From NCBI GenBank assembly GCA_903878275.1, contig CAIRHC010000007.1, positions 78,482 to 142,481 on the forward strand: DNA of 64,000 nt, written 5' to 3'. The position numbers and the translations under genes were made by a program. How positions within the stretch are numbered: the stretch's first letter is position 1; every line of letters starts with the position of its first letter. Under the pieces are notes generated by a model. The model was not told where the DNA came from and made no database searches. It saw only the letters and a list, made by a program, of their open reading frames with translations. Source of the DNA: Candidatus Vogelbacteria bacterium. GTDB taxonomy: Bacteria; Patescibacteriota; Minisyncoccia; Phycocordibacterales; XYD1-FULL-46-19. Positions 3,409 to 37,082 of the stretch are shown piece by piece.

Positions 3409-3945
3409 ATGAAAATCGCTATTATCTCCGACACTCACGATAACGAGCTTCACGTTCAAAAATTTTTGACTTGGGCAAATGCCAATCAAATTGAAGGCAT
3501 TATTCATTGTGGTGATATCGCTCGTTCGGACACGTTGCATCTTTTACTCGACAACTTTAAAGGTTTGATTAAAGTGGTTTTTGGTAATGCCGAGCTGGAC
3601 AAGGTCGAAATGCTTAAACTTCCAGCCAAGCATCTCAATCTCGAGATTCATTCCGAAGAGGGGGAATGGACGGTCGGTAAATGGCGCCTGTATTTCACTC
3701 ATAAACCAGATCAGATAAATTCACTAGCTGAAAGTAAAAAATATGATTTTATCTTCTATGGACATACTCACAAGCCGTGGATTACCGAAAAAGCGGGGGT
3801 CTGGTTGGTAAATCCTGGGACACTGTCTGGTGCTCTGGAGCATACCAGTTTTGCCGTTTGGGACAGCGAGACCGGTAAGGTGGAATTGAAGGTTTTGGAC
3901 CAGGTGGTGCCCACCCAAAATGAAATGAAGCCACCTCTTATTTAG
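3409..3945 (+). CDS. metallophosphoesterase (YfcE/MJ0936-like phosphodiesterase)
   Basis: IAIISDTHDN..GD, GNAE.D, GHTH motifs of the calcineurin-like phosphoesterase fold. Confidence 0.75.
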   Translation: MKIAIISDTHDNELHVQKFLTWANANQIEGIIHCGDIARSDTLHLLLDNFKGLIKVVFGNAELDKVEMLKLPAKHLNLEIHSEEGEWTVGKWRLYFTHKPDQINSLAESKKYDFIFYGHTHKPWITEKAGVWLVNPGTLSGALEHTSFAVWDSETGKVELKVLDQVVPTQNEMKPPLI

Positions 3946-6665: not shown

Positions 6666-7937
6666 ATGTTGACAGCATTTTTTAATAAACTCAATTTAAT
6701 CTTAAGCGACAAAAGTTTAAGAGGCAGAATCCTGTTTATTGTTGGTGCTTTGGCTGTTTTTCGTTTTTGTGCCGCTATTCCAATTCCTGGTGTTAATGTT
6801 TTACAGCTTGAGAAATTTTTAAGCAACAACCAGTTTTTTGGTTTGTTGAATATTTTGTCTGGTGGTGGTTTGTCCAATCTTTCAATTATGATGCTTGGTG
6901 TCGGGCCGTTTATTACGGCGTCGATTATTATGCAACTTTTGACGATGGTTTCGCCGAAATTGAAGCAACTTTACCACGAAGAAGGACAAATGGGGCGACG
7001 TAAAATTGCCCAATACTCTCGTTTGCTGACTGTTCCGCTTGCTTTTTTGCAAGGTCTCGGTTACTTGGTCTTGCTCGAAAAACAAGGTATTTTGATGAAT
7101 CTAACTAGTTTTGAAAAATTAATAAACATTATCGTCATCGTCGCTGGCTCACTTTTGATTATGTGGATTGGTGAATTGATTACCGAATACGGTATTGGCA
7201 ACGGTGTCTCGATGATTATCTTCTCTGGTATCGTGTCTCGTTTGCCGTCGGCGATGTCTGAACTCGCCGTGACTTTTGAACCATCCCAAGCCCCAATGCT
7301 CCTTGGTTTTGGCGTGCTTATTGTGCTGGTCTTGGCGGGCATTGTTTTTATGACCGAAGCCGAGCGACCAATTCCGATTACTTATGCCAAGCGGGTGCGG
7401 GGGATGAAAGTTTATGGTGGCACTTCCACTTATTTACCGATTCGCGTCAATAATGCTGGTGTGATGCCGATTATCTTTGCTTTGTCGATTATTTTGTTCC
7501 CGCAAATGATTGCCAATTTTTTGGGTGCTTATGGTGGTGCCACCAAAACAGTTGCTGATTTTCTCAATGCCTTTTTTGCCAATCAATGGTTTTACGGCGC
7601 CTCTTATTTCTTGTTGGTCTTTGTCTTTACCTATTTTTATTCCGCGATTACTTTCGATCCAGAATCAATGGCGGTCAATTTGCAGAAAAATGGTGCTTTT
7701 ATCCCTGGTGTTCGTCCTGGTAAACCAACCGAAGAATATGTGACTAAGATTTTGACTCGTTTGACTTTGGTCGGCGCACTTTTCTTGGGTACGGTGGCGT
7801 TGTTGCCGATTATCCTCAAAGGTTTGACCGGTATTGCTACTCTGGCGATTGGCGGAACTAGTATTTTGATCGTCGTCTCGGTGGCGATTGAACTAGTGAA
7901 GCAGATCAATGCGCAGATTTCGATGAGAGAATATTAG
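6666..7937 (+). CDS. secY: preprotein translocase subunit SecY
   Basis: 423 aa multi-TM; position after rplO. Confidence 0.92.
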   Translation: MLTAFFNKLNLILSDKSLRGRILFIVGALAVFRFCAAIPIPGVNVLQLEKFLSNNQFFGLLNILSGGGLSNLSIMMLGVGPFITASIIMQLLTMVSPKLKQLYHEEGQMGRRKIAQYSRLLTVPLAFLQGLGYLVLLEKQGILMNLTSFEKLINIIVIVAGSLLIMWIGELITEYGIGNGVSMIIFSGIVSRLPSAMSELAVTFEPSQAPMLLGFGVLIVLVLAGIVFMTEAERPIPITYAKRVRGMKVYGGTSTYLPIRVNNAGVMPIIFALSIILFPQMIANFLGAYGGATKTVADFLNAFFANQWFYGASYFLLVFVFTYFYSAITFDPESMAVNLQKNGAFIPGVRPGKPTEEYVTKILTRLTLVGALFLGTVALLPIILKGLTGIATLAIGGTSILIVVSVAIELVKQINAQISMREY

Positions 7938-7947
7938 AGAGGGTAGG

Positions 7948-8112
7948 CATTTGAGTGTAACTTTTAAAACCACAGAAAAAGCCCCAGCGGGGCTTTTTCC
8001 TTTGCTTCAAGTCGCCATTTCGCCCTCGTTCGCCAAAGGCGAACAAAAACAAAGGGCGAAAACCATGCTGGCGATAATTCCGCAGAGGTTTTTAAAAGTT
8101 ACACTCAAATGC
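7948..8112. repeat. 25-bp inverted repeat (gcatttgagtgtaacttttaaaacc / ggtttttaaaagttacactcaaatgc) enclosing ~115 bp with nested hairpins
   Basis: arms read directly; the overlapping ORF 7951..8244 is probably spurious. Confidence 0.6.
7976..7998 (+). terminator. rho-independent terminator aaaaagccccagcggggcttttt after secY
   Basis: GC stem + T run. Confidence 0.6.
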
Positions 8113-8140
8113 CTTGTGGTGTGGGAAGGTTGGAGGCTAA

Positions 8141-8168
8141 AACCGCCCGAGGCAAGCCTCGGGCGGTT
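8141..8168. repeat. REP-like palindrome family 1 (aaccgcccgaggc-aa-gcctcgggcggtt)
   Basis: the same or near-identical palindrome recurs at 8879, 9763, 12655 and 19758; related ACCGCCC stems at 3361, 28789 and 39371. Confidence 0.6.
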
Positions 8169-8202
8169 TAGTTATCCACCGTTATCTTTCCAAAAATCTA
8201 GC

Positions 8203-8229
8203 GGGGGGGGGGGCTTTATTTGTTATACT
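8203..8229 (+). promoter_or_regulatory. poly-G(11) tract + extended -10 (TGtTATACT) promoter module
   Basis: G11 at 8203-8213; TATACT at 8224-8229; the module is conserved upstream of 9915 and 19947. Confidence 0.5.
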
Positions 8230-8294
8230 AAAATTAATTATTAGTTTTTTAACAATTAATCAGGTTGGTCTTTGAAAAGGCTGACCAAAAAATA

Positions 8295-8849
8295 ATGAAA
8301 AAATATCTTTTTGTCTCATTAGTTGTCGCTTCTTTTGTAATTTTGCCGGTGTTTGCCTCGGCACAAGCAGTTTCGTATCATCCAGCGGATACGAATAATA
8401 ATTATAAAATAGAGAAGGATGAATTGGTCTCATACGTTATCTCGTTTCTTTCGCCGACCGGTACCCTTGTTGGGGTGACTTTGTCTCAACTTGCACGAGT
8501 TGTTACTTTCTACAATGCTGGAGGTTATAAAGTTTATAATGGTACTAGCGATGGTTTTGCTCCTAGCCCAGCTTTTCACCCGGCTGATACCAATAAAAAC
8601 TATAAAATAGAATTATCCGAGCTGAATGCTTATCGAGAACTTTATAATCAAAAAATGATAACTTTAACTCAAGTATCAAGGGCAATTACTTTTTATAATG
8701 CCGGAGCTTATAAAGTTGATCCTAGTTCATCTGATGGGTTTGCTCCTCGACGAGTTGTGGTTAGCGAATCAGCCAATAGTGCTCAATTGGCAAGTATTGT
8801 GACCGCGCTGTCTTCTCTGTTGAATGAAATTAAGCAACTTGCAAAATAA
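8295..8849 (+). CDS. secreted protein with two ~65-aa tandem repeats (dockerin/EF-hand-like D.N.N.KIE..EL loops) and a conserved C-terminal amphipathic motif
   Basis: MKKYL signal peptide; repeats YHPADTNNNYKIEKDEL / FHPADTNKNYKIELSEL. Confidence 0.6.
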   Translation: MKKYLFVSLVVASFVILPVFASAQAVSYHPADTNNNYKIEKDELVSYVISFLSPTGTLVGVTLSQLARVVTFYNAGGYKVYNGTSDGFAPSPAFHPADTNKNYKIELSELNAYRELYNQKMITLTQVSRAITFYNAGAYKVDPSSSDGFAPRRVVVSESANSAQLASIVTALSSLLNEIKQLAK

Positions 8850-8878
8850 AACTAAATAAGATTAAGAAATGGAAAAAT

Positions 8879-8906
8879 AACCGCCCGAGGCAAGCCTCGG
8901 GCGGTT
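8879..8906. repeat. REP-like palindrome family 1 copy (likely terminator)
   Basis: aaccgcccgaggcaagcctcgggcggtt. Confidence 0.6.
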
Positions 8907-8940
8907 TGTGTTGCCAGAGCATTTTTTGTATACTAGAAAT

Positions 8941-9345
8941 ATGGAGATAACTCACCAACATAAGCTTGAAGTTGCTAAAATTGCCAAAAAATTCCAATTA
9001 AATCTAGTTGTTATTTTTGGTTCTTTTGCTAATGGAAAACAGCGAGAAGATAGCGATTTAGATATTGCCGTTTTGGGCGACAAAGAAATTTCTTTTAATG
9101 AGCAAATCGGCTTAATAAATGAATTATCTTTAATTTTTAATAAAAACATTGACTTGTCGGTGCTAAACCGAGCGAATCCACTACTACTTTTTCAAGTTAG
9201 CCAGAATTCGGTTATTATTTATGGCAGTCACGAAGAATTTTTGAAGTTTAAACTTTACGCTTTCAATGTCTACAATGATTATGCTCCCTATTTTGCGATG
9301 GAAAATAATTTGAATAAAAAAATAATCAATACTTATGCCAATTGA
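8941..9345 (+). CDS. minimal nucleotidyltransferase (MNT; MntA-like antitoxin)
   Basis: GSFANGK....DSDLD NTase motif. Confidence 0.75.
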   Translation: MEITHQHKLEVAKIAKKFQLNLVVIFGSFANGKQREDSDLDIAVLGDKEISFNEQIGLINELSLIFNKNIDLSVLNRANPLLLFQVSQNSVIIYGSHEEFLKFKLYAFNVYNDYAPYFAMENNLNKKIINTYAN

Positions 9346-9757
9346 TAAAAAACTTATAAGTCGAAAAATTACTTTGATCAACGGTGATTTAAAGAGTTTA
9401 AAAGGCTTAAACAAACTTTCACTCAAAATTTATTTAAGCAACGCGGAGTACGAAACACTGGCGGAAAGATATTTAGAAAGAATAATCGGGCGAATGATTG
9501 ATATTAATTATCATATTTTGTCAGAAAAAGAAAATGAAATGCCCACTGATTTTTACAGTTCTTTTGTTCTGTTGGGCAGAAAAAAGTATTTACCGATAAA
9601 ACTAGCTGAAACGATGGCTGGTTCGGCTGGGTTGCGGAATCGTTTGGCTCACGAGTATGATGAAATTGATGCTAAAAAAGTTTTCGGGGCGATCGATTCT
9701 TGCTTAAAAGATGTACCGAAATACCTAAAGAATATTGTTGCATCGCTGGGTTTGTAA
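9335..9757 (+). CDS. HEPN domain protein (DUF86/HepT-like toxin)
   Basis: RNRLAHEYDEID = HEPN R-x4-6-H motif; overlaps the MNT gene by 11 nt. Confidence 0.7.
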   Translation: MPIDKKLISRKITLINGDLKSLKGLNKLSLKIYLSNAEYETLAERYLERIIGRMIDINYHILSEKENEMPTDFYSSFVLLGRKKYLPIKLAETMAGSAGLRNRLAHEYDEIDAKKVFGAIDSCLKDVPKYLKNIVASLGL

Positions 9758-9762
9758 AAAAT

Positions 9763-9790
9763 AACCGCCCGAGGCTTGCCTCGGGCGGTT
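9763..9790. repeat. REP-like palindrome family 1 copy
   Basis: aaccgcccgaggcttgcctcgggcggtt. Confidence 0.6.
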
Positions 9791-9824
9791 TAGTTATCCA
9801 CCATTATTTCCCTAAAATCTATCA

Positions 9825-9851
9825 GGGGGGGGGGGCTTTATCTGATATACT
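9825..9851 (+). promoter_or_regulatory. poly-G(11) + TGaTATACT promoter module
   Basis: G11 at 9825-9835, then ctttatctgatatact. Confidence 0.5.
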
Positions 9852-9914
9852 GAATAAAATATTCGGCATTTTTAAGTTTTTAAAATTTATTATTAATAAC
9901 TAATTACAAAAATA

Positions 9915-12629
9915 ATGAAAAAATATCTTTTAGGTTTTTTACTCGTCGCTTCTTTGGTGGTGCTTCCGTCGGTGTCTCAAGCTGCTGAAGATTTAACGGT
10001 TACTTTGTATGGTTCGGGTTTGACGAAGGGTGTGGTCGGTGAGCCAGTGGTCCAAACCAGTTTTTCGGTCATGGTCACGCCAAACAACGGTGATGTTTAT
10101 TTGTATACGGGTGGGATATTAGGCATTCAACTTATTCAAGATGGAGGTCGCCCAATGCCCGATAATTGTACTTATAGCCAGAGCCTTACGGGGACATTGC
10201 CTATAGTTACGCATCCTCTAGGAAGCCAATATTATAAACTTGCCAGAGGCACCACTGCTCGTTTCAATGCATCTGTTTATTGTAAGATCAGTCAAATGCA
10301 TCCTGGTACTTATTATGGAAAACTTAGTCACGTAACATATAGCAAGACTGATCCTACGACAACAAACAGTTGGTATGATCAAAATATAGAAAACATCAGG
10401 ACACCAGCATCTATAAATATGTATGTTCTCGGCGAGACTGGTCCGTGGATTAGTTTGGCTGTGGCTAAGGCTGTTCAAGGTGGTTATGAGATTGTTTTAA
10501 CAGGAGAAAGATTGGGTCAGGTAAGAAGCGTGTTCCTGAACAACAAAACATACACTCCCTCAGCCAAACCTGGTGACTCTGTAAGTTTTTTTGCCAGTAT
10601 TGCTGATTTACCTGCCGGTAATTATCCTAGTTATGCTAATTTCTCTGGTGGTAAAAGTAATAATTTTTATCTGATGGTTGGAGGTAGTTCGATTGGAATT
10701 ATTTCACCCAATGGAGGGGAAAATTTAAATGAAGGTTTCGATTATCCTATAAGATGGACAAATTATAATATCACCTCGCCAACCGTTAACGTGGGAATTG
10801 AAAGATATGATAGTTCTGGGGCGTCTCAAGGTTCAACAAATATTATCACTGTCCCAACTACACAAAACAATTCCTATCTTTGGAGGGTTAATCCAAATTT
10901 AGCTTGGCAGGGAACACCGGTGAATCCTTCTTCTGGCCCTTTTAAGTATAAAATTTATGTTAATACTCCAGTCGGTGTTTCCCCAGTTGTTTCTGATTAT
11001 AGTGATAATTATTTTACTATAGCTGCATTAAATCCGACAGCCAAAGTCGCTGTCACCTCCCCAAAAGGAGGAGAGTCATTAGCTCAAGGCTCTACTTATA
11101 ATATTACGTGGAATGCTGCTAGTACTGTCACTAAAGTTGCCATCAGTCTTCTTAAGGGTGATATCGTTCGCTCTACTTCTATTATCAATCCGGTATCAGC
11201 TTCGGCGGGAACTTATGCTTGGAAAGTTGGAAACACCGCAGCGGGAATGATGGAGCCTGGGACTGATTATCGAATCAAAGTTTATGGTGTGACCGATGCC
11301 GGTGTCCCTATTGCGGATGCTAACAGTACCAGTAATTATTTCAGTATTGTGGTATCAGCACCAGCGACCGCTCCCACCATTAATAGTATTACTCCAAACA
11401 CCGCACCGATCGGAACTGCTTCTCGGGTAATCATCCGAGGCTTAAATTTCAGTATCGGTGATACTGTGTATCGTTTTGACGGAGAAATTCAAAGTCAACC
11501 ATTCTGTACTATCGGCGTTAACGCCAATGGGAACTACGACTGTCTTCCTGCTAAACTACCCGCTGGTGCGTACAAGCTTGCGGTGGTAAACTCTCGTGGG
11601 ACGAGCAATAAAGTGGATTTTACTTTTACTCCAGCTACGGCTATACCCACTCTTTCTGTGTCGCTAGATCCTTCTAACCCAACCAGACAAAACATCGGTG
11701 CGGGATCTATTGATCAAGTTTTTGTTAGAATTAAAGTTACCGCCGGATCGATGGATGTTAATAATCTTCAAGGAATCCAACTTGGTTCAGATTCTGCTAA
11801 TGCCAATGATTTTATAACCAACATAAAAGTTTTTGATGGGGCAAATCAGTTGGGTGGAACCATCTCTGGGTTGGACAATAATGGAAAAATTTTTTATAAA
11901 TGGACTTATCCTACTGGCGTAATGATTCCAGCTGGTACCTCTAAGATTCTGACCATTGTCGCCGAAGTGAAATCGACAGCTTCTAGCAATAGCAATTTTC
12001 GTTTAGGTATAACTGGCTGGAATTTTGTTTTTCCGGGGACTGCTGTGGAGCCGTTCGGGACACCGATATATGGTAATTATATGACGATAACGGCTTTGAC
12101 AGATCAGCCGACAATCACCGCAGTAGCAATGGCTTTACCAAATTGTTCTCTTGGTGCGATCAACTGTACTTGGCAGGCGGGGACAGATGGATATTATCTT
12201 TGGGGTTACCTTAATCCTAATACTCCGACCGGTAATACCGTCTCGGTTAGTCTTTGTGCCCCAGACGGAATAACCTGTACGATAGCAAAAGATGCTTCAC
12301 TTAAGGATCTCAACAAAGTACCGTCAAAAACTGGAACCGGATTAGGTAACCTGAATTCTGATAAGGCACCGCTTGGTCGTGGTGTTTTAACCAACCCAGA
12401 TCTGGTGGGAGGGAAGAATCCTGTTATCGTCAATAATCAGTCAACCTTAAAAATCTGCCCAACCAATGCCGACGGTTCGCCTGTGACTAGTGGTATTTGC
12501 AAGGTTAGTCCGGTTTTTACCATTACTCCGCCAGCTACCGCTAGTAATTCTCTGGTGAGTCGACAGTTGGCAAGTATTATTACAGTTTTGTCGGATTTAT
12601 TGGCGAAGATTCGGGGATTGGCTTGGTAA
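9915..12629 (+). CDS. large secreted multi-domain surface protein (Ig-like SPNGGE..W..ITW domains, IPT/TIG-like module)
   Basis: 904 aa, signal peptide MKKYLLGFLLVASLVVLPSVSQA; shares a ~260-nt module with the 19947 gene. Confidence 0.7.
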   Translation: MKKYLLGFLLVASLVVLPSVSQAAEDLTVTLYGSGLTKGVVGEPVVQTSFSVMVTPNNGDVYLYTGGILGIQLIQDGGRPMPDNCTYSQSLTGTLPIVTHPLGSQYYKLARGTTARFNASVYCKISQMHPGTYYGKLSHVTYSKTDPTTTNSWYDQNIENIRTPASINMYVLGETGPWISLAVAKAVQGGYEIVLTGERLGQVRSVFLNNKTYTPSAKPGDSVSFFASIADLPAGNYPSYANFSGGKSNNFYLMVGGSSIGIISPNGGENLNEGFDYPIRWTNYNITSPTVNVGIERYDSSGASQGSTNIITVPTTQNNSYLWRVNPNLAWQGTPVNPSSGPFKYKIYVNTPVGVSPVVSDYSDNYFTIAALNPTAKVAVTSPKGGESLAQGSTYNITWNAASTVTKVAISLLKGDIVRSTSIINPVSASAGTYAWKVGNTAAGMMEPGTDYRIKVYGVTDAGVPIADANSTSNYFSIVVSAPATAPTINSITPNTAPIGTASRVIIRGLNFSIGDTVYRFDGEIQSQPFCTIGVNANGNYDCLPAKLPAGAYKLAVVNSRGTSNKVDFTFTPATAIPTLSVSLDPSNPTRQNIGAGSIDQVFVRIKVTAGSMDVNNLQGIQLGSDSANANDFITNIKVFDGANQLGGTISGLDNNGKIFYKWTYPTGVMIPAGTSKILTIVAEVKSTASSNSNFRLGITGWNFVFPGTAVEPFGTPIYGNYMTITALTDQPTITAVAMALPNCSLGAINCTWQAGTDGYYLWGYLNPNTPTGNTVSVSLCAPDGITCTIAKDASLKDLNKVPSKTGTGLGNLNSDKAPLGRGVLTNPDLVGGKNPVIVNNQSTLKICPTNADGSPVTSGICKVSPVFTITPPATASNSLVSRQLASIITVLSDLLAKIRGLAW

Positions 12630-12654
12630 GAAAAATATAGATTAAGAAACGGGA

Positions 12655-12686
12655 AAACCCCGCCGAGGCAAGCCTCGGCGGGGTTT
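12655..12686. repeat. REP-like palindrome family 1 variant / terminator
   Basis: aaaaccccgccgaggcaagcctcggcggggtttt. Confidence 0.6.
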
Positions 12687-12720
12687 TGCTTTTTGGTTAT
12701 GTTGGCGTTATGATTAGGAA

Positions 12721-13326
12721 ATGGAAAATCTCAAAACCTTTATTTTTATTGGTCGGTCGGGAAGTGGCAAGGGCACTCAAGCCGAGCTTCTTGTAAATCA
12801 CTTCAAAGAAACCGGTGTGATCAATGACCAAAATCCACTTTTTTACCTAGAGACCGGTCATCAGTTTCGTGAATTTATTACCAGCACTAGTCATACTGGG
12901 CGCTTGGCAAAAGCCGTGATGGATAAGGCAGAGCGCCAGCCGGATTTTTTGGCAGTGTGGTTGTGGTCGCATATGTTTGTGGAAAATATTGTCGGTGATG
13001 AGCATTTGTTTTTGGATGGCACACCACGTTCACTTAATGAAGCGCGAACTCTCGACACAGCGATGACTTTTTATAGCCGAAAAAATATTTGTGTTGTTTA
13101 TTTGGACGTCTCACGTGAAGAATCAAAACGGCGAATGGAAGAGCGTAGTCGGGCTGATGATAAAAAAGTTTCGGATATTGAAACTCGCCTGAATTGGTTT
13201 GATACCGATGTCTTGCCGGCGGTAAAATTCTACGAAGATAATTCCCGTTATCATTTTTTGAAAATAAATGGCGAACAGACACGAGAGAAAATTCACGAAG
13301 ATATCGTTTCGGCGTTGCCAAAATAA
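12721..13326 (+). CDS. adk: adenylate kinase (short type)
   Basis: GRSGSGKGTQA P-loop, LDGTPR motif; the usual gene after secY. Confidence 0.7.
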   Translation: MENLKTFIFIGRSGSGKGTQAELLVNHFKETGVINDQNPLFYLETGHQFREFITSTSHTGRLAKAVMDKAERQPDFLAVWLWSHMFVENIVGDEHLFLDGTPRSLNEARTLDTAMTFYSRKNICVVYLDVSREESKRRMEERSRADDKKVSDIETRLNWFDTDVLPAVKFYEDNSRYHFLKINGEQTREKIHEDIVSALPK

Positions 13327-13331
13327 AATTT

Positions 13332-14096
13332 ATGATTAAATTAAAAACTCCCGAACAGATAGAAATTTTGCGGGCTGGAGGCGAAAGATTGGCTAAGATT
13401 TTGGCGACGGTGGCGCGCGAAGTCAAAGCTGGCGTGGAAACTCGAGCACTTGACGATTTGGCGCAAAAACTTATTTTGGCGGGAGGTGATAAGCCCGCTT
13501 TTTTGAATTACCGACCAGCTGGGTCACGTCTGGCCTATCCAGCCTCTCTTTGTGTTTCGATCAACGAAGAAATTGTTCACGGCATTCCGAGTAATCGGAA
13601 AATTGCCGACAGTGATGTGGTAAGTATCGACCTTGGTCTGATTCACAATGGAATGTACACCGATATGGCAGTGACAGTGGCTGTGGGCGAGGTAGATAAA
13701 ATAAAAAAGAAAATGATTGAAGTGGCGCGCGAGGCTCTGAACGTGGGAATTAAAGAGGCAAAAATTGGGGGACATATCGGTGATATTAGTCAGGCAATCG
13801 AAGATTTTATTATCGGTCAAGGTTTCGATGTTGTCTTAGACTTGGCTGGTCACGGTGTCGGTTTCCAAGCCCACGAAGATCCGTTTATTCCCAATTATGG
13901 TAAAAAAGGTAAAGGGGAAAAAATCGAAGAAGGTTTGGTTTTGGCGATTGAGCCGATGGTGACACTCGGTGATGGAAAAATAAAACTGGAAAAAGATGGT
14001 TTTACTTTTACGACTCGCAACAAAGAATGGTGCGCGCATTTTGAGCATACGATTGCTGTTACCAAAAATGGTCCAAAAATTTTAACAAAATTATAA
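13332..14096 (+). CDS. map: type I methionine aminopeptidase
   Basis: 254 aa; pita-bread fold motifs; position after adk. Confidence 0.88.
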   Translation: MIKLKTPEQIEILRAGGERLAKILATVAREVKAGVETRALDDLAQKLILAGGDKPAFLNYRPAGSRLAYPASLCVSINEEIVHGIPSNRKIADSDVVSIDLGLIHNGMYTDMAVTVAVGEVDKIKKKMIEVAREALNVGIKEAKIGGHIGDISQAIEDFIIGQGFDVVLDLAGHGVGFQAHEDPFIPNYGKKGKGEKIEEGLVLAIEPMVTLGDGKIKLEKDGFTFTTRNKEWCAHFEHTIAVTKNGPKILTKL

Positions 14097-14112
14097 GGAT
14101 TAAACTTGCTTA

Positions 14113-14140
14113 CCGGAATTTTGCCCAGGCAAAATTCCGG
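14113..14140. repeat. REP-like palindrome family 2 (ccggaattttgcc-cag-gcaaaattccgg)
   Basis: same palindrome family as six copies in the pilin locus. Confidence 0.6.
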
Positions 14141-14156
14141 CAGGTTAAATATTATT

Positions 14157-14714
14157 ATGATAAAAGAAGAACAAACACTGATTGTCGTCAAACCCGATGG
14201 CGTCAATCGTGGTCTGGTCGGGGAAATCATTGCTCGTTTTGAAAAAGCTAGGTTCAAAATTATAGCGTTGAAGATGGTCGAAGTCGAAAAAACTTTAGTG
14301 CAAAAACACTACAACCACGACGACGCTTGGATGGAAAAAGTCGGCGAGCGGACGCGGGAATTTTACGAAAAACATGGCGAAGACGAGGGTGAGAAAATTG
14401 GCAAGATGACAAATAAAGAAATTGGTAAGATGATTGAAGATTGGAGTTGCGACTATATGACAGACGGTCGAGTAGTAGCGGTGGTCTTGCAAGGTCACAA
14501 TGCCATTCAAACGGTCCGTAAAATGGTTGGCGCCACTTATCCGAGCGAAGCTTTGCCGGGAACCGTCCGTGGTGATTATTCAAACGAATCACCCCTCTCC
14601 GCCAACATCAACAAACGTTGTGCCCACAATATCATTCACGCCTCCGGCAATCCCGAAGAAGCCAAATTCGAAATTGACCTATGGTTTAAAAATGAAGAAA
14701 TTTGCCAGAAGTAA
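14157..14714 (+). CDS. ndk: nucleoside diphosphate kinase with ~45-aa internal insertion
   Basis: TLIVVKPDGV, NIIHAS motifs; start set after the palindrome. Confidence 0.75.
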   Translation: MIKEEQTLIVVKPDGVNRGLVGEIIARFEKARFKIIALKMVEVEKTLVQKHYNHDDAWMEKVGERTREFYEKHGEDEGEKIGKMTNKEIGKMIEDWSCDYMTDGRVVAVVLQGHNAIQTVRKMVGATYPSEALPGTVRGDYSNESPLSANINKRCAHNIIHASGNPEEAKFEIDLWFKNEEICQK

Positions 14715-16742: not shown

Positions 16743-17135
16743 ATGGAAAATGACAAGGCAAAATGTCAAAATGATAAAGAAAAATTCAAAAACGAGTTTA
16801 AAAGAAGAATTTATAGTTGGGTATTGAGATTAATAAAGTTCATTGATTGCTTACCTAAGAATCAGAGCGCTAATGTCATAGGCAAACAATTGATAAGAAG
16901 TGGAACAAGTATTTTAGCTAATTACGTTTAGGCAAATTCTGCTAGCTCAAAGAAAGATTTTATAAATTTTTTTACTTACTCATTAAAATCAGCTAACGAA
17001 TCAAAAGTCTGGATATCCCTACTTAAAGATACTGGTCAAGGAGAGATAAATGAGTTAGAGTATTTATTGAAAGAGCTGGTTGAAATATCAAATGTGGTGG
17101 CGAGTAGCATATTAACAATGAAAGGGCGTAAGTAA
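16743..17135 (+). pseudogene. four-helix-bundle protein (23S rRNA IVS-protein family) interrupted by an in-frame TAG at 16929
   Basis: ..IGKQLIRSGTSILANYV-TAG-ANSASSKKDFINF..SANESKVWISLL matches the family across the stop. Confidence 0.6.
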
Positions 17136-17194
17136 TTTTATAATTTTGTAAATGTCATTTTTCATTTTGATTTTTACATTTTAAATTAATAAAT

Positions 17195-17800: not shown

Positions 17801-17883
17801 AGCTAACTAAATTTTACCTGTTGGTGGCGGTTGTGATATACTTAAACAAGTTTTTATTATCAATTATTAATTAATTTAAATAA

Positions 17884-19713
17884 ATGAAAAAATATCTCGT
17901 AGTTTTAATACTTGTCGGACTAATCATCTCGACTCCTTTGGCAACCCAAGCTTTTAGTGGAGGGGATCTCTCTTCGCTTATTACTAAAATAGAAAATCTT
18001 ATTGTTCAGTTGAAGCAAGTGCAACTGGCAGCGGTTTTTAGTAGAAACCGGGTAGTCAAAAAAGCCCCGACACCGACACCTACACCAGCCACGGGTACTT
18101 ATTATGTCGATTGTGCCAGTACTGCCAACGATAATAATGCTGGTACTAGTGCAACAAAGCCTTGGCATACCATCGGCCGTGCTTCTTGTATGAGTGATAA
18201 TCCGCAGTGTGGCTCTTTTAAACCTGGCGATACTATTTTGTTTAAACGGGGTTGTACCTGGACTGGCGAGCAATTAACCATCAACACGTCTGGCACTGCT
18301 GGTAAGCCAATTACTATCGCTGACTACGGCACTGGTAATTTGCCGATTATACAGGGCAGTGTCTCTGCTCCAGTTGGTGTTGGTAACGTAAGAGATATGA
18401 TTAATGTAAACGGCAAGAGCTATCTGACATTTCAAAATCTAGAAATAAGATATGCTGAAAATCCGGTGGTTGTAAATAATTCTAGCAATATTGTTTTAAA
18501 TAATCTTAATATTCATGACAATATCGGCTACGGTGCCATTCTTTTAACCGCTGATAGTCAGAGTACAACAAATAATACCGTAAGTAATACTACAATATAC
18601 AATACCAAAGCCAGTACCGAATCAGGACAGATTGGCGAAAATGGCGACCCCAATAGTCGTGGTCATGGAATTTTTATGTTTTCTAATTCAAGTCAGTCAT
18701 TGGTAAATAATAACATTTTTACCGGCAATACTATTTATAATAATGGTGAGTCTGGTATCGACATGATTTTGGGATCAAATAATCGCTTTAGTCAAAATAA
18801 AATTTATAACAATGGCAGTTCCGGCATTAGTTTGGTAAGTGTTAACGGTGAATCTAATGGTAATATTGTTGAGAACAATCTTGCTTACAATAATGGTCAA
18901 ACAACCGACGACGTTGCCGGTATCGATTTGCATCGTATCGGTAGTAATAATATTGTAAGGTATAATGCGGTTTATAATACAGTTGATGCTTTAATAGCGC
19001 CGACAATCCCAGCTCGTCCATGGAATAATGGTACAAAATACGGCAACGTTGGCATTAGATTTGATAGTAATACTGACCAGTCAGTACCGGTGATTGCTGC
19101 CACTGGTAATCAAGTTTATTACAATCTAATCGTTGGCGGCACTTATAATTTTATGAATATTCGCAATACCGGTCTATCATTCTTCAACAATATTCTACAT
19201 AACAGCTCATCGGATAATGTCCGAATTCATAACAGTAAAGATGTTCTTGATTTTGTTTTTAAGAATAATATTCTTACTCGTAATAGTAATAACGAAAACG
19301 TTTATTTTGTTCGCATTCAAGATGCTAAAAATGTTACTGATCCTGCTAAGTTCAACAATAATATGTATTATTCTTCGGTCGCTGGTGGCAAGTTCTGCGC
19401 GCTTACAGATAAAGATGCTTGGTGCTTAAATCCGGTTACGACGCTGGCTGATTGGCAAAGTCAAAGTGGCTTTGATAAAACAAATTCGTTAATAGCTAAT
19501 CCTCAATTTTCAGCAACTGCTCCGACAAGTGTTTCGGCAACTAATATTGAGAGCGCAGTCAGTAGCTTTAAACTAAACGCTACTTCACCAGCCTTGGATA
19601 AGGGTGCCACAGATGTGACTGCTGGGTTATCGTTAGCTCAAGATTATTTTAGTCAAAGCGTGCCGTACGGCAGTAGCTTACCAGATCTTGGCTTTAGCGA
19701 AATTGCTAAATAA
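17884..19713 (+). CDS. secreted right-handed beta-helix (pectate-lyase-fold) protein
   Basis: signal peptide; PTPTPTP linker; repeated NN..IxNN and IYNNG.SGI PbH1-like turns. Confidence 0.7.
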   Translation: MKKYLVVLILVGLIISTPLATQAFSGGDLSSLITKIENLIVQLKQVQLAAVFSRNRVVKKAPTPTPTPATGTYYVDCASTANDNNAGTSATKPWHTIGRASCMSDNPQCGSFKPGDTILFKRGCTWTGEQLTINTSGTAGKPITIADYGTGNLPIIQGSVSAPVGVGNVRDMINVNGKSYLTFQNLEIRYAENPVVVNNSSNIVLNNLNIHDNIGYGAILLTADSQSTTNNTVSNTTIYNTKASTESGQIGENGDPNSRGHGIFMFSNSSQSLVNNNIFTGNTIYNNGESGIDMILGSNNRFSQNKIYNNGSSGISLVSVNGESNGNIVENNLAYNNGQTTDDVAGIDLHRIGSNNIVRYNAVYNTVDALIAPTIPARPWNNGTKYGNVGIRFDSNTDQSVPVIAATGNQVYYNLIVGGTYNFMNIRNTGLSFFNNILHNSSSDNVRIHNSKDVLDFVFKNNILTRNSNNENVYFVRIQDAKNVTDPAKFNNNMYYSSVAGGKFCALTDKDAWCLNPVTTLADWQSQSGFDKTNSLIANPQFSATAPTSVSATNIESAVSSFKLNATSPALDKGATDVTAGLSLAQDYFSQSVPYGSSLPDLGFSEIAK

Positions 19714-19757
19714 TAATATTTAAATTTAGTTAAGATAAATAAAAGATTGTAAGAATA

Positions 19758-19791
19758 AATCCCGCCCGAGGCTAGTCCTCGGGCGGGATTT
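19758..19791. repeat. REP-like palindrome family 1 variant / terminator
   Basis: aaatcccgcccgaggctagtcctcgggcgggattt. Confidence 0.6.
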
Positions 19792-19875
19792 GCGGTGAAG
19801 CTAATTAGAATGGGGATAACCCGTGAGCCGTGCGAACGGAGCAGTCCCCCGAAGTGGGGATAACTAAATTATACT

Positions 19876-19901
19876 GGGGGGGGGGCTTTCTGTGATATAC
19901 T
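19876..19901 (+). promoter_or_regulatory. poly-G(10) + TGaTATACT promoter module
   Basis: G10 at 19876-19885, then ctttctgtgatatact. Confidence 0.5.
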
Positions 19902-19946
19902 TAAACAAGTTTTTATTATCAATTATTAGTTTAATTTATTTTATTT

Positions 19947-21779
19947 ATGAAAAAATATCTCGTAGCCTTGGCACTAGTCGGGCTAATCATCTCGACTCCT
20001 TTGGCAACCCAAGCTTTTAGTGGAGGGGATCTCTCTTCGCTTATTACTAAAATAGAAAACCTTATTACTCAATTAAAACAATTTCAATTGGGTGCGGTCG
20101 GAACTATCACTGGAGAATCAGCGATTTTAAGTGATTTTGTTTTTACTCCATCCTCACCGTTGGCGATCAACACTACTATCACTGGGAAAGTTAAAATTAC
20201 CAACAACGGCACTGTCGCTCTTCCTGGAGCTGGATATGGTTTGAGGGCGACAAATGTGACAGATTCTAAATTTCTATTTTCTGTTTTTGTGCCCACTATT
20301 CAGCCTGGAGCTTCGGTTGTTCTCCAAAATGGTATGACCTTCTCGTTCCCGACAGCTGGCTACAAAGATACTTTGTGGGAATTAATAAAGGTGGGCAGTA
20401 CTGTGCCTTTGACGACGACTCATCAATATCTCGTGGCGGGGGAAAGTGCCGGTCTTCTTTTTGATTCTTTCTCGCTGGCTTCTCCTGTTGCTCCAAATAC
20501 CAATGTCACCGCGAGTATCAAAGTGGTCAGTAATGGTACCGCTTTATCTGGCTATCAGCTCGTCGGAACGAGTGACACTGGTTTAGTTATCCCAACTATT
20601 ACTGATGTTTCTGTCCCCTCGGCTAGCCCGGCTGGTATTCAAATTAAAACTTTTACCACCCCACCATTTAATTCTGGTACATCCGGAAACTCGGTCATTA
20701 CTTGGAAATTAATTAAAGGCACTACGGTTTTGGGAAATGCGGTGACGGGGACTTTGATGGTGGGTCAAGCAACTCCTTCTATTGCTGTAATTTCCCCAAA
20801 TGGAGGAGAAAATTGGAAAGTGGGTGAAACACATAATATTACTTGGAAGACTAAAGACCTTCCGTCGTCAGATATAATTAATATTAATTTGTTACAGAAG
20901 AATAATGCAATGTTGTTTGTGGCCAATGCTATTAATTCCGGTTCTTATTCTTGGACGATCCCTGTTGAAATGCATGGTTTCAATTTAAATGAGGACGATA
21001 ATTATAAAATACAGCTTCTCGATAATAAGGCGCAACCTTCTTATTTTTCTGACTTGAGCGATACTTATTTTAGTATTTTGGAATCACCTACCACTCCCAC
21101 CGTCAATAGTATTACTCCAAACACCGCACCGATCGGAACTACTTCTCGAATAATAATCAGAGGTTTAAATTTCAGCATCGGTAGCACCATCTATACTTTT
21201 AATGGAGAGACGAAGGACAAACTGTTCTGTACTATCAGCGTCAACGCCAATGGGAACTATGATTGTCCTCTTCCTGCTACTTTTTCCGCTGGTGCATACA
21301 AACTTGCGGTGGTAAACTCTCGTGGGACGAGCAATAAGGTAGATTTTACGTTTACTTCTATTCCTGTTATTACTAATTTAACTGTGGCGTCTACCTCAGC
21401 TATTTTAGGTCAAGGTATTGGTAGTCCGGTCGATCGTTATCCTGTCACTTTTTCTTTTACTCTGGTTAATTCAGGCGATATTCCTTTGTATTTGTCGAAT
21501 AATCCTTCAATTGCATTTGCAACAGTGACATCTCCCGTAAATTCTCCATCTAGTGTTTCTTCTTTTCTTGCGTCTCTTTTACCGGGGGATTCACCTGGTG
21601 CATATGTTATACCGGCGAACGGACAGAGAAGATTCGTAGCTTCTGGACTGATTATGAGTTCTCTTCAAGGAGCAGGGTTACAAATTGTGAGTATATTTTA
21701 CGGTACTTCAGCCAGTGATTTGAGAGCCCTGAACATAGATGTTTCTCGTAAAGGTTTGGGTCAAATGGTGCTTAATTAG
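19947..21779 (+). CDS. secreted surface protein (paralogue of the 17884 N-terminus; Ig-like and IPT-like modules)
   Basis: first ~45 aa near-identical to the 17884 gene; IPT module ~85% nt identical to 11383-11640. Confidence 0.7.
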   Translation: MKKYLVALALVGLIISTPLATQAFSGGDLSSLITKIENLITQLKQFQLGAVGTITGESAILSDFVFTPSSPLAINTTITGKVKITNNGTVALPGAGYGLRATNVTDSKFLFSVFVPTIQPGASVVLQNGMTFSFPTAGYKDTLWELIKVGSTVPLTTTHQYLVAGESAGLLFDSFSLASPVAPNTNVTASIKVVSNGTALSGYQLVGTSDTGLVIPTITDVSVPSASPAGIQIKTFTTPPFNSGTSGNSVITWKLIKGTTVLGNAVTGTLMVGQATPSIAVISPNGGENWKVGETHNITWKTKDLPSSDIININLLQKNNAMLFVANAINSGSYSWTIPVEMHGFNLNEDDNYKIQLLDNKAQPSYFSDLSDTYFSILESPTTPTVNSITPNTAPIGTTSRIIIRGLNFSIGSTIYTFNGETKDKLFCTISVNANGNYDCPLPATFSAGAYKLAVVNSRGTSNKVDFTFTSIPVITNLTVASTSAILGQGIGSPVDRYPVTFSFTLVNSGDIPLYLSNNPSIAFATVTSPVNSPSSVSSFLASLLPGDSPGAYVIPANGQRRFVASGLIMSSLQGAGLQIVSIFYGTSASDLRALNIDVSRKGLGQMVLN

Positions 21780-24248: not shown

Positions 24249-24652
24249 GGGGATGATCGGCTTCGACAGGTAGCCTTTCTCTAGTGTGTATGTGGAGACT
24301 CCGAATCCTCCTTAAACATCGGAAAAACAGTCAAATGCCAACGCATCTGACAAGGGACTTGTGGCTTCGCCATATTTCTCTCCAGCCTTGGCTTTAGCCT
24401 AACGCTGGTGCTGGCTTAAATCGCAGTCTGGATGATTTAAGTTGGTATAATAAATTCTGGACTAGCAATTAAACATTTCTCGGTTTAAAAGCGAAACAAA
24501 GAGAATCGACTAATTAAGGTTTTGTTTGTTTAACACTTAGTTAGTTTAAATCCGCTCGGCGATTAGCCGAGCGGGACATAAACAATCTACACATATAGAT
24601 TCACTAAAGTAACCTATTTGCACGGGGGTTCGATTCCCCCCATCTCCACCCA
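24249..24652 (+). ncRNA. ssrA: tmRNA (ssrA)
   Basis: 5' GGGGATGATCGGCTTCGACAGG; 3' tRNA-like GGGGGTTCGATTCCCCC T-arm + CATCTCCACC with a G3:U wobble; internal tag ORF ending ..PALALA-TAA at 24337-24402. Confidence 0.8.
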
Positions 24653-37009: not shown

Positions 37010-37082
37010 GCGCCTGTAGCTCAGTTGGTAGAGCGACGAGCTTATACCTCGTTGGTCCTAGGTTCGAGTCCTAGCAGGCGCA
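37010..37082 (+). tRNA. tRNA-Ile with anticodon UAU
   Basis: cloverleaf parsed by hand: acceptor gcgcctg/caggcgc, T-arm ctagg-ttcgagt-cctag, anticodon stem acgag/ctcgt, loop cttatac. Confidence 0.75.

Follow-up and report, generated by a model that had tools for sequence, protein, structure and literature searches.

The interval between secY and adk is, as a whole, best explained as a lineage-specific, fast-turnover slot for cell-surface genes in a tiny-celled, Vogelbacteria-like member of the Paceibacteria (CPR), and this explanation is considered likely. In the window, which is the whole 64-kb stretch of DNA analyzed here, secY (6666-7937, plus strand; Pfam SecY, 349 bits) closes a ribosomal-protein cluster (L22...L15-SecY), with the ORFs 5' of it encoding L22, S3, L16, L14, L5, S8, L6, L18, S5 and L15. 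It is separated from adk (12721-13326) by 4,783 nt; across 97 related Paceibacteria loci, the median distance is 124 nt. The insertion of about 4.7 kb proposed in a preliminary description of this DNA is therefore real. Its surface-protein genes and HEPN/MNT pair are likewise borne out: ORFs 8295-8849 and 9915-12629 begin with typical Sec signal peptides (MKKYLFVSLVVASFVILPVFASA and MKKYLLGFLLVASLVVLPSVSQA), and both members of the pair pass their NCBIfam models and carry the expected motifs (see below).

Layout and variability of the secY-adk slot

The interval contains three separate transcription units, namely SurfA, the MntA-HepT pair and SurfB. The slot would be bracketed by a three-helix element upstream (7945-8114) and by an ancestral terminator and the adk promoter downstream (12654-12714). 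Hairpin H4 (12654-12687, unstranded like H1-H3 below), which has a good T-tract, is probably this ancestral terminator preceding the adk promoter (12686-12714, plus strand). The promoter was read from the sequence as TTGCTT, a 17-nt spacer and TATGAT, and the adk ATG lies 6 nt past the -10, so that the mRNA is nearly leaderless. A matching layout, with the terminator running into TTGCTT, is found in the relative L002, and equivalent promoters lie upstream of adk in L001 and L002. The following genes adk, map (13332-14096) and ndk (14106-14714), identified with Pfam, form a plus-strand block (12721-14714) whose order is conserved in relatives.

Synteny supports the interruption, as the secY-adk junction is broken here relative to most relatives and the content of the slot differs between the nearest genomes. 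The nearest relatives compared have SecY proteins 72-74% identical to that of the window. The secY-adk gap is only 45 nt in L082 and 103 nt in L002, while the slot holds genes for a 272-aa secreted SurfA-like protein in L083, a 368-aa secreted PG_binding protein in L087, a 1224-aa secreted beta-helix protein in L085 and a DUF1189 membrane protein in L001, another gene with a signal-peptide start in L084, and an MNT-HepT pair together with a gene for an 865-aa secreted Peptidase_C1 protein in L161. In outgroups (SecY 54-66% identical), secY mostly adjoins adk or a housekeeping kinase gene intervenes.

The slot would act like a small "replacement" flexible island. Replacement flexible genomic islands are strain-variable, occupy conserved positions and carry the genes for exposed structures of the cell surface (López-Pérez et al. 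2014, PMC4033161). Like them, the slot has a fixed chromosomal position between conserved core genes, a content that varies per relative with a constant functional class (secreted/surface proteins), and no classical mobility genes; homologous recombination could act on its conserved flanks and on the ends that its cassettes share. The slot differs from these islands in its far smaller size (0-4.8 kb, 1-4 genes), its position inside the ribosomal-protein/secY-adk cluster and its cargo of protein cassettes rather than glycosyltransferase clusters; moreover, species or genera are compared here, not strains.

Surface proteins and their cassette family

SurfA (8295-8849, plus strand) is a 184-aa secreted protein with two dockerin/EF-hand-like tandem repeats and a C-terminal amphipathic helix. 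Its signal peptide was read from the sequence, and the 184-aa gene call was confirmed. Among representative proteins, 436 carry the SurfA-type repeat, frequently at their C-terminus and in company with cohesin, beta-helix or PKD domains. SurfB (9915-12629, plus strand) is a 904-aa secreted protein with Ig-like domains (Kre9_KNH, TIG; Pfam) and a C-terminal helix as in SurfA, the 3' ends of the two genes being homologous. No full-length homologue was found besides SurfB itself, but its residues 375-583 share 49% identity with the product of 19947-21779.

This latter gene belongs to one of two paralogous plus-strand cassettes located further downstream. Cassette 3 (17813-19713) comprises an interrupted G-rich tract (TGTTGGTGGCGG), TGATATACT and the gene for a 609-aa secreted beta-helix protein. 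Cassette 4 (19757-21779) comprises a hairpin variant (19757-19791), a G10 tract (19876-19885), TGATATACT (19893-19901) and the gene for a 610-aa secreted Kre9_KNH/TIG protein. SurfA and SurfB have promoter and signal peptide in common with these genes at 17.9-21.8 kb, and promoter, 5'UTR and signal peptide are common to all four MKKYL genes. Judged from sequence, SurfA and SurfB are home-grown paralogues; their relationship to genes located 8-10 kb further downstream, together with their composition (see below), means that they are not obviously foreign. They would belong to an "MKKYL" secreted-protein cassette family native to the genome. In such a cassette, the terminator hairpin would be followed by the TTATCCACC box and the poly-G tract, then by the extended -10 (TGnTATACT), the 5'UTR, the signal peptide and a variable body; in SurfA and SurfB, a C-terminal helix and a hairpin common to both come last. 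The slot may have been filled via duplication and recombination through these shared ends, although no recombinase or mobility gene was found that would explain cassette movement.

Hairpins attached to the cassettes

Promoter cassette 1 has at its 5' end the terminator-like hairpin H1 (8141-8168; AACCGCCCGAGGCAAGCCTCGGGCGGTT), an identical copy of which, H2 (8879-8906), lies just 3' of SurfA. Promoter cassette 2 likewise has H3 (9763-9790) at its 5' end, with the same stem and the loop flipped (CTTG for CAAG). The copies at 8141, 8879 and 9763 are near-identical, H4 at 12654 is a 77%-identical variant, and one more variant lies outside the block at 19757; the family was found neither elsewhere in the 64 kb nor in any of the 160 related loci searched. 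Five REP-like palindromes had previously been described in the block. Four of them form this one family, whereas the fifth (7975-7999), a terminator-like hairpin within the inverted-repeat element, is unrelated to them. The H hairpins resemble REP/BIME palindromes and intrinsic terminators in being GC-rich, perfect 28-nt hairpins that recur 3' of genes with the same sequence at three sites. They differ in that there are just 4-5 copies, all attached to surface-gene and TA cassettes, and no RAYT transposase was seen. Same-strand units that each end in a hairpin and are inserted at one site also recall integron gene-cassette arrays (attC), but here there is no integrase, each unit has its own promoter, and the perfect GC-rich stems lack R''-L''/L'-R' architecture and extrahelical bases. 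The H hairpins behave as terminator modules copied along with the cassettes.

Poly-G tracts in the promoters of surface-protein genes

Promoter cassette 1 (8169-8232, plus strand) contains a TTATCCACC box (8172-8180), a G11 tract (8203-8213) and an extended -10 TGTTATACT (8221-8229). It is duplicated as promoter cassette 2 (9791-9854, plus strand), with a TTATCCACC box (9794-9802), a G11 tract (9825-9835) and an extended -10 TGATATACT (9843-9851). The sequence TGNTATACTNAA occurs five times in the window against 0.11 expected. Uninterrupted tracts (G11, G11 and G10) lie just 5' of the extended -10 in three of the four paralogous promoters and are the longest homopolymers in the 64 kb, where the G runs measure 6, 6, 6, 10, 11 and 11 nt and runs of other bases reach at most 8 nt. 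G runs of at least 8 nt thus occur at only three sites in the window, all at the same promoter position, and they are uninterrupted despite flanks that have diverged to 50-78% identity. When the window and 2.4 Mb of related loci were searched for a G run of at least 7 nt followed by a -10, five of six matches lay upstream of MKK(Y)L secreted proteins, including the promoters in L083 (G8; TTGTTA-16 nt-TGATATAAT) and L008 (G10 within a 19-nt spacer, TTGCTA to TATACT).

The G10-11 tracts may be a candidate phase-variation device for three of the four cassettes, in which slipped-strand mispairing would alter promoter geometry and render expression phase-variable. To our knowledge, G/C homopolymers of at least 8 nt are hypermutable in every bacterium examined, and association with surface proteins is typical of classical contingency loci. 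Phase variation through homopolymeric tracts in promoters occurs at porA and opc of Neisseria meningitidis, fim of Bordetella pertussis and vlp of Mycoplasma hyorhinis. As in these systems, an overview of which is available (PMC1797815), surface-protein genes have an uninterrupted 8-11-nt G tract in their core promoter region, several paralogues each have their own tract, and one paralogue is interrupted ("locked"). L008 and L083 match porA and fim exactly in having the tract between the -35 and the -10. The three promoters of the window differ in having an extended -10 and no convincing -35 at any spacing, which would call for another mechanism, such as phasing of the upstream box; switching here is only a candidate. 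Among the papers searched for phase variation or homopolymeric-tract promoters in CPR/Patescibacteria, no report of promoter homopolymer-tract switching was found.

It is also possible, though less probable, that the tracts are static cis-elements whose length is fixed within populations, serving as part of a regulator or sigma-factor site or as a fixed-geometry spacer. A static role would fit the exact G11 in both of two paralogous promoters, the conserved TTATCC(A/C)C box that both the window and L008 have beside the tract, and the fact that no length polymorphism, the property that defines phase variation, is on record; the window tracts are known from one contig of 149,994 bp, and all eight window proteins looked up are singletons, with no strain-level relatives in the collections. 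The lengths, however, differ among paralogues and orthologous-type promoters (8, 10, 10, 11 and 11 nt, plus one interrupted copy), and both the hypermutability of such runs and their company with surface proteins, as at classical contingency loci, count against a fixed length.

The MntA-HepT toxin-antitoxin pair

The gene mntA (8941-9345, plus strand) encodes the nucleotidyltransferase antitoxin of a type VII TA system (NCBIfam MntA_antitoxin, 85.9 bits; Pfam Polbeta, 74 bits) and overlaps by 11 nt with hepT (9335-9757, plus strand), which encodes the HEPN RNase toxin (NCBIfam HepT_toxin, 93.1 bits); the cut-off of each equivalog model is 60 bits. MntA has GSX10DXD at residues 27-41, HepT has the RX4H motif as RNRLAH at residue 101, and the pair carries its own -10. 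HepT/MntA is a type VII toxin-antitoxin system (Yao et al. 2020, PMC7641770), and the pair matches it in placing the antitoxin gene first, in the gene overlap, in both motifs and in passing both models. No difference was detected at the sequence level, the level at which the pair is known here, although the present subfamily is unusually conserved across CPR classes, with more than 100 HepT homologues 75-86% identical.

Staskawiczbacteria, Moranbacteria and Paceibacterota have HepT proteins with 84-86% identity; SecY identity reaches at most 74% in full-length relatives and 87% on one cut contig. The MNT-HepT pair also lies in unrelated contexts in L165, L168 and L171. These data clearly show that the TA pair circulates horizontally among CPR lineages. 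Within the block, a foreign look appears limited to this pair, given its low GC (MNT 0.309, z = -3.1; HepT z = -1.9) and the high cross-class HepT identity. The pair might contribute to island stabilization or abortive-infection defence.

Origin of the slot content

The preliminary description held that a conserved operon had been broken and colonized by accessory DNA, both at secY-adk and after map. The interruption at secY-adk and the mobility of the TA pair stand, but a single horizontally acquired island is an unlikely source of the whole. Such an island would be consistent with the deviant GC of the TA pair, the GC3 of SurfA (z = -2.0), the absence of the block content from L082 and L002, and the horizontal movement of HepT. 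Composition is mixed, however: MNT deviates, whereas SurfB, which makes up 57% of the block and has a paralogue 8 kb away, is ordinary (GC z = 0.4), and both SurfA and SurfB are ordinary relative to the surface-protein genes of the same genome. Also against a single island, the promoters are shared with native genes, no integrase, tRNA or flanking direct repeat was found, and relatives with other inserts have the inverted repeat of the left edge at the orthologous position.

The post-map part of the single-island view is largely refuted. The infA-rpmJ-rpsM-rpsK-rpoA-rplQ genes had been described as replaced after map, and tblastn with E. coli InfA, L36, S13 and S11 indeed gave no match in the 64-kb window, while the same queries match after map in Berkelbacteria and Actinobacteria loci. 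No Paceibacteria locus examined has infA/S13/S11 within 10 kb of secY, however, and in one relative infA-rpsM lie at a different site, after ftsA. Paceibacteria loci share the conserved order map-ndk-(TM protein)-beta-CASP RNase (RNase J-like)-SLOG protein; the map-ndk order is ancestral and clade-wide rather than the product of a local replacement. Judged by the comparison with related genomes that the preliminary description itself proposed, the claimed replacement after map is refuted and the interruption between secY and adk is not.

It is similarly improbable that the block was ancestral to the Vogelbacteria-like clade and that the short-gap relatives lost it by deletion. Ancestry would agree with a secY 3' element common to several lineages and with the MNT-HepT pair that occupies this slot in L161 (SecY identity only 73%), and part of the slot content may predate the genome because L161 has the TA pair there. 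Against ancestry, the outgroups mostly lack any such block, the secreted-protein genes of the slot are non-homologous between genomes, and the HepT of L161 is 86% identical, far above the flanking Adk (54%) and Map (57%), which points to later transfer rather than vertical descent. For the slot content, insertion and differential loss are not fully separable.

A conserved three-helix element downstream of secY

A repeat scan, folding and covariation define a three-helix element (7945-8114, given on the plus strand) at the secY 3' end. It comprises P1 (7945-7969/8090-8114), a perfect 25-bp stem whose 25-nt arms are 100% complementary and 120 nt apart, P2 (7975-7999), a terminator-like hairpin, and P3 (8000-8087), a long hairpin with an A-rich internal loop. 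The fold z-score of the region is -10.2, and no chance matches are expected. Homologues lie directly 3' of secY in L001, L087, L086 (cut) and L161, of which L001, L087 and L161 have the element although their inserts differ, and L097, which has no insertion, gives a weak match (25.4 bits). Compensatory changes affect 32 of 50 pairs, a level reached in none of 500 shuffles, and an Rfam search matched no family. The large inverted repeat said to open the inserted DNA therefore exists, but it is a conserved, covarying secY 3' element and not an insertion boundary.

With its perfect terminal inverted repeats of 25 bp, the structure on the left side of the block might suggest a MITE or transposon scar at the insertion point, which is very improbable given that the repeat is single-copy in the window, lacks a target-site duplication, keeps its position directly 3' of secY in at least four other lineages, matches weakly in insertion-free L097, and has arms that differ in sequence while compensatory change keeps their pairing, the opposite of transposase-bound terminal repeats. 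As a conserved secY 3' element, it would act in termination, processing or stabilization of the secY transcript; a DNA-level role may also be possible because G-U pairs are nearly absent from the element and neither strand is preferred.

Gene content of the secY-adk interval

The window, which derives from a CPR bacterium of Paceibacteria, begins with the ribosomal-protein cluster L22, S3, L16, L14, L5, S8, L6, L18, S5 and L15, whose last gene is secY (6666-7937, + strand). The genes adk (12721-13326, +), map (13332-14096, +) and ndk (14106-14714, +) lie downstream, and secY is separated from adk by 4,783 nt; over 97 Paceibacteria loci, the median of this distance is 124 nt. The accessory insertion proposed here in the preliminary description is thus borne out, and the interval content is lineage-specific accessory DNA. 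Its surface-protein genes and HEPN/MNT pair, named in the same description, are likewise confirmed by signal peptides and NCBIfam models.

All real genes of the interval are on the + strand: SurfA (8295-8849, 184 aa), MntA (the MNT protein; 8941-9345, 134 aa), HepT (the HEPN protein; 9335-9757, 140 aa) and SurfB (9915-12629, 904 aa). SurfA and SurfB each carry a classical Sec signal peptide, and SurfB contains Kre9_KNH and TIG Ig-like domains. SurfA is composed of two copies of a ~66-aa unit with an EF-hand/dockerin-like loop (YHPADTNxNYKIExxEL). An exhaustive HMMER search returned 436 representative proteins with the unit, which frequently sits at the very C-terminal end of large proteins that have beta-helix, PKD or cohesin domains. 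The single-sequence AlphaFold model of SurfA (pLDDT 39) was unusable. An ORF of 97 aa (7951-8244) shares sequence with both the structured element at the secY 3' end and hairpin H1 (8141-8168) and was rejected as spurious. The block is a flexible islet; its type VII toxin-antitoxin system and its possible contingency promoters are, like the islet, of known kinds.

A recurrent slot for secreted and surface-protein genes

The best matches of SecY were from Candidatus Vogelbacteria MAGs (72-74% identity; 87% for one cut contig). All eight window proteins looked up in protein clusters were singletons, and exact-protein look-ups of SecY and SurfB returned no match on record.

When synteny was compared, the content of the secY-adk slot differed among the nearest genomes. 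Two loci have no gene there (L082, 45 nt; L002, 103 nt), while others contain a 272-aa secreted protein with the SurfA repeat (L083), a 368-aa MKKYL secreted PG_binding protein (L087), a 1224-aa secreted beta-helix/PG_binding protein (L085), a DUF1189 membrane protein with a small reverse ORF (L001), or another signal-peptide gene starting 65 nt after secY (L084). In L161-L163, the slot spans 4.2 kb and holds a small reverse ORF, an MNT-HepT pair (76% and 86% identical to the window's MNT and HepT, respectively) and a secreted Peptidase_C1 protein of 865 or 774 aa that also has the SurfA-type repeat. These different occupants show that the secY-adk site is a recurrent slot for secreted/surface-protein genes, with occupants that differ in almost every genome. 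The gaps of 600-950 nt in other Paceibacteria were rejected as accessory DNA; they are occupied by a second, housekeeping P-loop kinase gene of gmk-like or cmk-like type.

CPR bacteria, which have many orphan surface proteins, are thought to be host-attached, and some of these proteins would mediate the contact. Slot turnover in nearly every related genome suggests that the proteins encoded here are under diversifying pressure from hosts or phages. It also means that repeated insertions are tolerated in this clade by the ribosomal-protein/secY-adk cluster, which is commonly regarded as a rigid marker block for phylogeny. The same behaviour has been described for 'replacement' flexible genomic islands (PMC4033161), which the slot resembles, but in miniature and inside the secY-adk cluster.

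Three contigs of the nearest relatives stop at secY's 3' end or shortly beyond it (L081 at SecY residue 418, L086 inside the structured element, and L084), which is consistent with strain heterogeneity or repeats disrupting assembly at the slot, although short contigs can end anywhere. Elsewhere in the ribosomal-protein cluster, a Metallophos_2 calcineurin-like metallophosphoesterase gene (3409-3945; 100 bits) is inserted at the rplE / rpsN-rpsH junction. This insertion is present in 5 of 5 Vogelbacteria-like relatives with data and in 0 of 99 other Paceibacteria loci, and additional inserted DNA was found at the junction of L5 and the metallophosphoesterase gene in L002 and L085.

A type VII toxin-antitoxin module

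The MNT protein passed the MntA_antitoxin model NF047752 (an NCBIfam equivalog) with 85.9 bits and the HEPN protein passed the HepT_toxin model NF047751 with 93.1 bits, the NCBIfam cut-off being 60 bits for both. The GSX10DXD motif of MNT is present as GSFANGKQREDSDLD (residues 27-41) and the RX4H motif of HepT, which conforms to RX4-6H, as RNRLAH (residue 101). The two genes are adjacent and co-oriented, with the antitoxin first and an 11-nt overlap. Because both equivalog models are passed and the catalytic motifs are present, the middle gene pair of the block is predicted to be a HepT/MntA toxin-antitoxin system of type VII, in which MntA AMPylates HepT and neutralises its RNase toxicity (PMC7641770).

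More than 100 HepT homologues are 75-86% identical to the window's, from sources named Paceibacterota, Moranbacteria, Staskawiczbacteria, Buchananbacteria, Falkowbacteria and 'Parcubacteria group', compared with at most 74% identity between SecY and its nearest full-length relatives; Adk and Map of L161 are 54% and 57% identical to those of the window. The pair follows ksgA in L165 (a Staskawiczbacteria genome), macB-type genes in L168 and L170, and tyrS in L171, and DNA similarity to the copies elsewhere is limited to the promoter and the two genes. These unrelated contexts and the confined similarity indicate that the pair is a horizontally circulating module of ~0.85 kb and that one HepT/MntA subfamily passes between CPR classes.

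In three of five independent contexts, this MNT-HepT subfamily lies immediately 5' of a large (865-958 aa) secreted protein (L161 4001-7045; L168 and L170 5001-8330; window 9335-12629), each time of a different domain family (Peptidase_C1, Beta_helix, Kre9/TIG). This neighbourhood with variable surface genes could be coincidence or real linkage.

SurfA and SurfB belong to a native cassette family

A plot of GC across the block had also been proposed as a check, and composition proved atypical only in part of it. Of 64 genes, MNT is the lowest in GC (0.309, z = -3.1), and HepT (GC z = -1.9) and the GC3 of SurfA (z = -2.0) also deviate; SurfB, which accounts for 57% of the block length, does not stand out (GC z = 0.4, GC3 z = -0.8), like other MKKYL genes, the secreted-protein cassette genes of the window. 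By per-gene GC and GC3, atypical composition does not extend across the whole block, the only deviants being MNT, HepT and SurfA GC3.

An integron cassette array is not supported, as no intI integrase lies in or beside the block and the hairpins are perfect palindromes and not attC sites. Nor does the block have the features of a horizontally acquired genomic island: inspection of ORFs revealed neither an integrase nor a transposase in the block or its surroundings, the nearest tRNAs are at 37 and 40 kb, and in a repeat scan the only direct repeats flanking the block were the terminator hairpins.

A 28-nt palindrome, AACCGCCCGAGGCAAGCCTCGGGCGGTT, occurs at 8141, 8879 and 9763, with variants at 12654 (H4, 12654-12687; 77% identical) and 19757; no other copy was found in the 64 kb and none in 160 related loci. 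The preliminary description had counted five REP-like palindromes in the block. Palindromes do recur there, with small corrections: three copies are near-identical, the one at 12654 is a variant and another lies at 19757. REP elements have many dispersed copies genome-wide, and this family has 4-5 copies in 64 kb, all at cassettes. Hairpin H3 (9763-9790) has a CTTG tetraloop compared with CAAG in the hairpins at 8141-8168 and 8879-8906; the stems are identical and the repeat is otherwise direct. An inverted tetraloop of this kind is what intrastrand template switching at a palindrome would be expected to leave.

A duplicated cassette of ~100 nt opens with the hairpin at 8141 and again with that at 9763. 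It comprises, after the hairpin, a TTATCCACC box, a G11 tract with no interruption and 10 nt, the last of which form an extended -10 (TGnTATACT); then come an AT-rich leader and ATGAAAAAATATCT, with which the signal peptide starts. Promoter, leader and signal peptide are also common to the secreted-protein genes at 17884 (beta-helix), where the G tract is interrupted (TGTTGGTGGCGG), and 19947 (Kre9_KNH/TIG), where it is G10. SurfA and SurfB have a common 3' end comprising a C-terminal helix (QLASI..LL..I..LA), a post-stop spacer and a hairpin, and the product of the 19947 gene has 49% identity with residues 375-583 of SurfB. The shared promoter, leader and signal peptide, the shared 3' ends and this paralogy argue that SurfA and SurfB are members of a native cassette family and not obviously foreign DNA. 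The block is therefore not a one-off island. It is a recurrent slot for surface proteins, built from cassettes and including a promiscuous toxin-antitoxin module.

A 20-nt sequence like the adk -10/start (TATGATTAGGAAATGGAAAA; 80-90% identity) lies just after the SurfA and SurfB stops, ahead of the hairpins, its copies being at 8857-8876, 12637-12656 and 12709-12728, and the inserted DUF1189 gene of L001 also carries a duplicate of the adk promoter. The adk 5' region may have been duplicated by insertions, or the 20-nt copies may be similar by chance.

Poly-G promoters of secreted-protein genes

The G runs of at least 6 nt in the window measure 6, 6, 6, 10, 11 and 11 nt and include the longest homopolymers in the 64 kb; C runs reach 6 nt and A/T runs 8 nt at most, in a genome of 59% A+T. 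In three signal-peptide genes, the G11, G11 and G10 tracts precede the conserved -10 by 10 nt, at the identical position in paralogous promoters whose flanks have diverged to 50-78% identity; the tract of the fourth paralogue is interrupted. By inspection of the sequence, no -35 was recognisable in these promoters.

A G run of at least 7 nt followed by a -10 within 13 nt occurs six times in the window and 2.4 Mb of related loci, five of the six being upstream of MKK(Y)L secreted proteins. Two poly-G promoters are from other genera: that of L083, after a SurfA-like gene with the same C-terminal helix, has G8 in a 16-nt spacer (TTGTTA...TGATATAAT, -10 TATAAT), and that of L008 has G10 in a 19-nt spacer from TTGCTA to TATACT with a TTATCCCCACC box upstream. 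Tract lengths across paralogues and other genera are 8, 10, 10, 11 and 11 nt, and the combination of a TTATCC(A/C)C box, poly-G and an extended -10 recurs in at least three genera. Assembly artefacts are an unlikely source of the tracts, since they are internal and uniquely flanked and recur at homologous positions in independent assemblies.

Contingency promoters are defined by a repeat whose length varies within a population or among close strains, and they carry this repeat, long and uninterrupted, in the promoter of a surface product; long uninterrupted tracts in such promoters are present here. Known promoter-located contingency loci include meningococcal porA and opc, Bordetella fim and Mycoplasma vlp, and the anatomy of the poly-G promoters is like theirs. 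Judged from promoter sequence, phase variation by these tracts is a tentative proposal, to which we give somewhat less than even weight: slipped-strand changes in the G8-G11 tracts would switch a secreted/surface-protein family on and off stochastically. In the papers searched on phase variation and homopolymeric-tract promoters in CPR/Patescibacteria, we found no report of promoter homopolymer-tract switching, the nearest case among them being an intragenic hypervariable repeat in a Gracilibacterium (PMC6851277). If true, this would be the first described promoter-level phase variation in CPR and would mark proteins facing the host or phage. A promoter family with hypermutable G tracts likewise suggests diversifying pressure from hosts or phages.

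The TTATCCACC box is a recurrent upstream motif of surface and pilin promoters. It is similar to the DnaA box, but this reading was dropped for lack of enrichment, as the window contains 23 one-mismatch matches compared with 16.8 expected, a number reached by 9 of 100 shuffles. Two type IV pilin-like genes (MKKYL...GFTLIELLVV; 51360-51640 and 54340-54600) have the palindrome-flanked 5'UTR motif TCTCGGAGGTCGAACCTTAAATCCCCAAAAAG in common, and the first has a TTATCCACCGTT box ~50 nt upstream of its TGCTATAAT -10. The poly-G promoters have this box at equal spacing, so that surface genes may have a regulator in common.

A conserved structured element at the secY 3' end

The element at 7945-8114 is closed by perfect 25-bp arms (7945-7969 / 8090-8114) and folds into a three-way structure (z = -10.2), in which P2 (7975-7999) is a terminator-like hairpin and P3 (8000-8087) a long hairpin with an A-rich internal loop. 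Elements of the same architecture lie directly 3' of secY in L001 and L087 and at the cut contig end in L086. A covariance model trained on three copies recovers L161, outside the training set (41 bits, E = 3e-8), and weakly matches L097 (25.4 bits, E = 0.008), where adk directly follows. Over four sequences, in an alignment fitted to the model, compensatory double changes occur in 32 of 50 pairs with 90% of cells paired, values reached by 0 of 500 shuffles, and slid controls give 5-11 pairs; an independent RNAalifold/MAFFT analysis of three sequences gives 22/50. More distant loci (L005, L003, L091, L004 and L134) have long near-perfect hairpins of unrelated sequence right 3' of secY. Weak model matches at L087:1515, L002:5887, L032/L089:12877 and L149 correspond to the terminator hairpin only and are not members.

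The inverted repeat had been read as a sign of colonisation, and this does not hold: its recurrence directly after secY in relatives argues for a conserved feature, not an insertion scar. A MITE is not supported, given the single copy in the window, arms that differ among orthologues while pairing is kept, and the lack of a target-site duplication. The Vogelbacteria-like insertions are all downstream of the element and upstream of the terminator and adk promoter; L085 is the exception, its insert standing in place of P3 and the 3' arm.

No Rfam family matches 7945-8114 at the gathering or a permissive threshold; the best sub-threshold match, Phe_leader (27 bits compared with 55), stems from the terminator hairpin. 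The element has few G-U pairs and similar minimum free energies on the plus and minus strands, so that an RNA or a DNA function, on either strand, would fit. Our best guess is that the element would act in termination, processing or stabilisation of the secY transcript. A perfect helix of 20-25 bp is a typical RNase III substrate. With its covariation, the element is a candidate new cis-acting RNA or DNA structure, and together with the poly-G promoter family it is one of two leads singled out. That both hold, the poly-G cassettes being genuine contingency loci in Paceibacteria and the element a new conserved structured-RNA class at the end of the ribosomal-protein/secY transcript, is possible but speculative.

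Gene order after map and other window features

The genes infA, rpmJ, rpsM and rpsK are absent from the 64-kb window, in agreement with the preliminary description, which had explained the replacement after map by local colonisation. This explanation fails, as the order map-ndk-(small TM protein)-beta-CASP RNase-SLOG protein is kept throughout the Paceibacteria loci. In these loci, no infA/S13/S11 was found within 10 kb of secY, and these genes are present near secY in Berkelbacteria, L034 and Actinobacteria loci. The break after map is thus an old clade-wide rearrangement, separate from the accessory block. In L171, of Paceibacteria, infA and rpsM (9851-10423) follow ftsA and a 645-aa ORF, far from secY, which shows where the 'missing' operon half can reside in the class.

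A tmRNA gene (24249-24651, 138 bits) and two tRNA genes (37010-37082 and 40004-40092) are ordinary and unrelated to the block. The lowest GC of the first 22 kb (0.284) is at 16743-17190, at the junction of the beta-CASP RNase and SLOG genes, where a 62-aa ORF (…IRSGTSILANY) without a Pfam match, which we take to recall the four-helix-bundle '23S rRNA IVS' proteins, may be a gene fragment.
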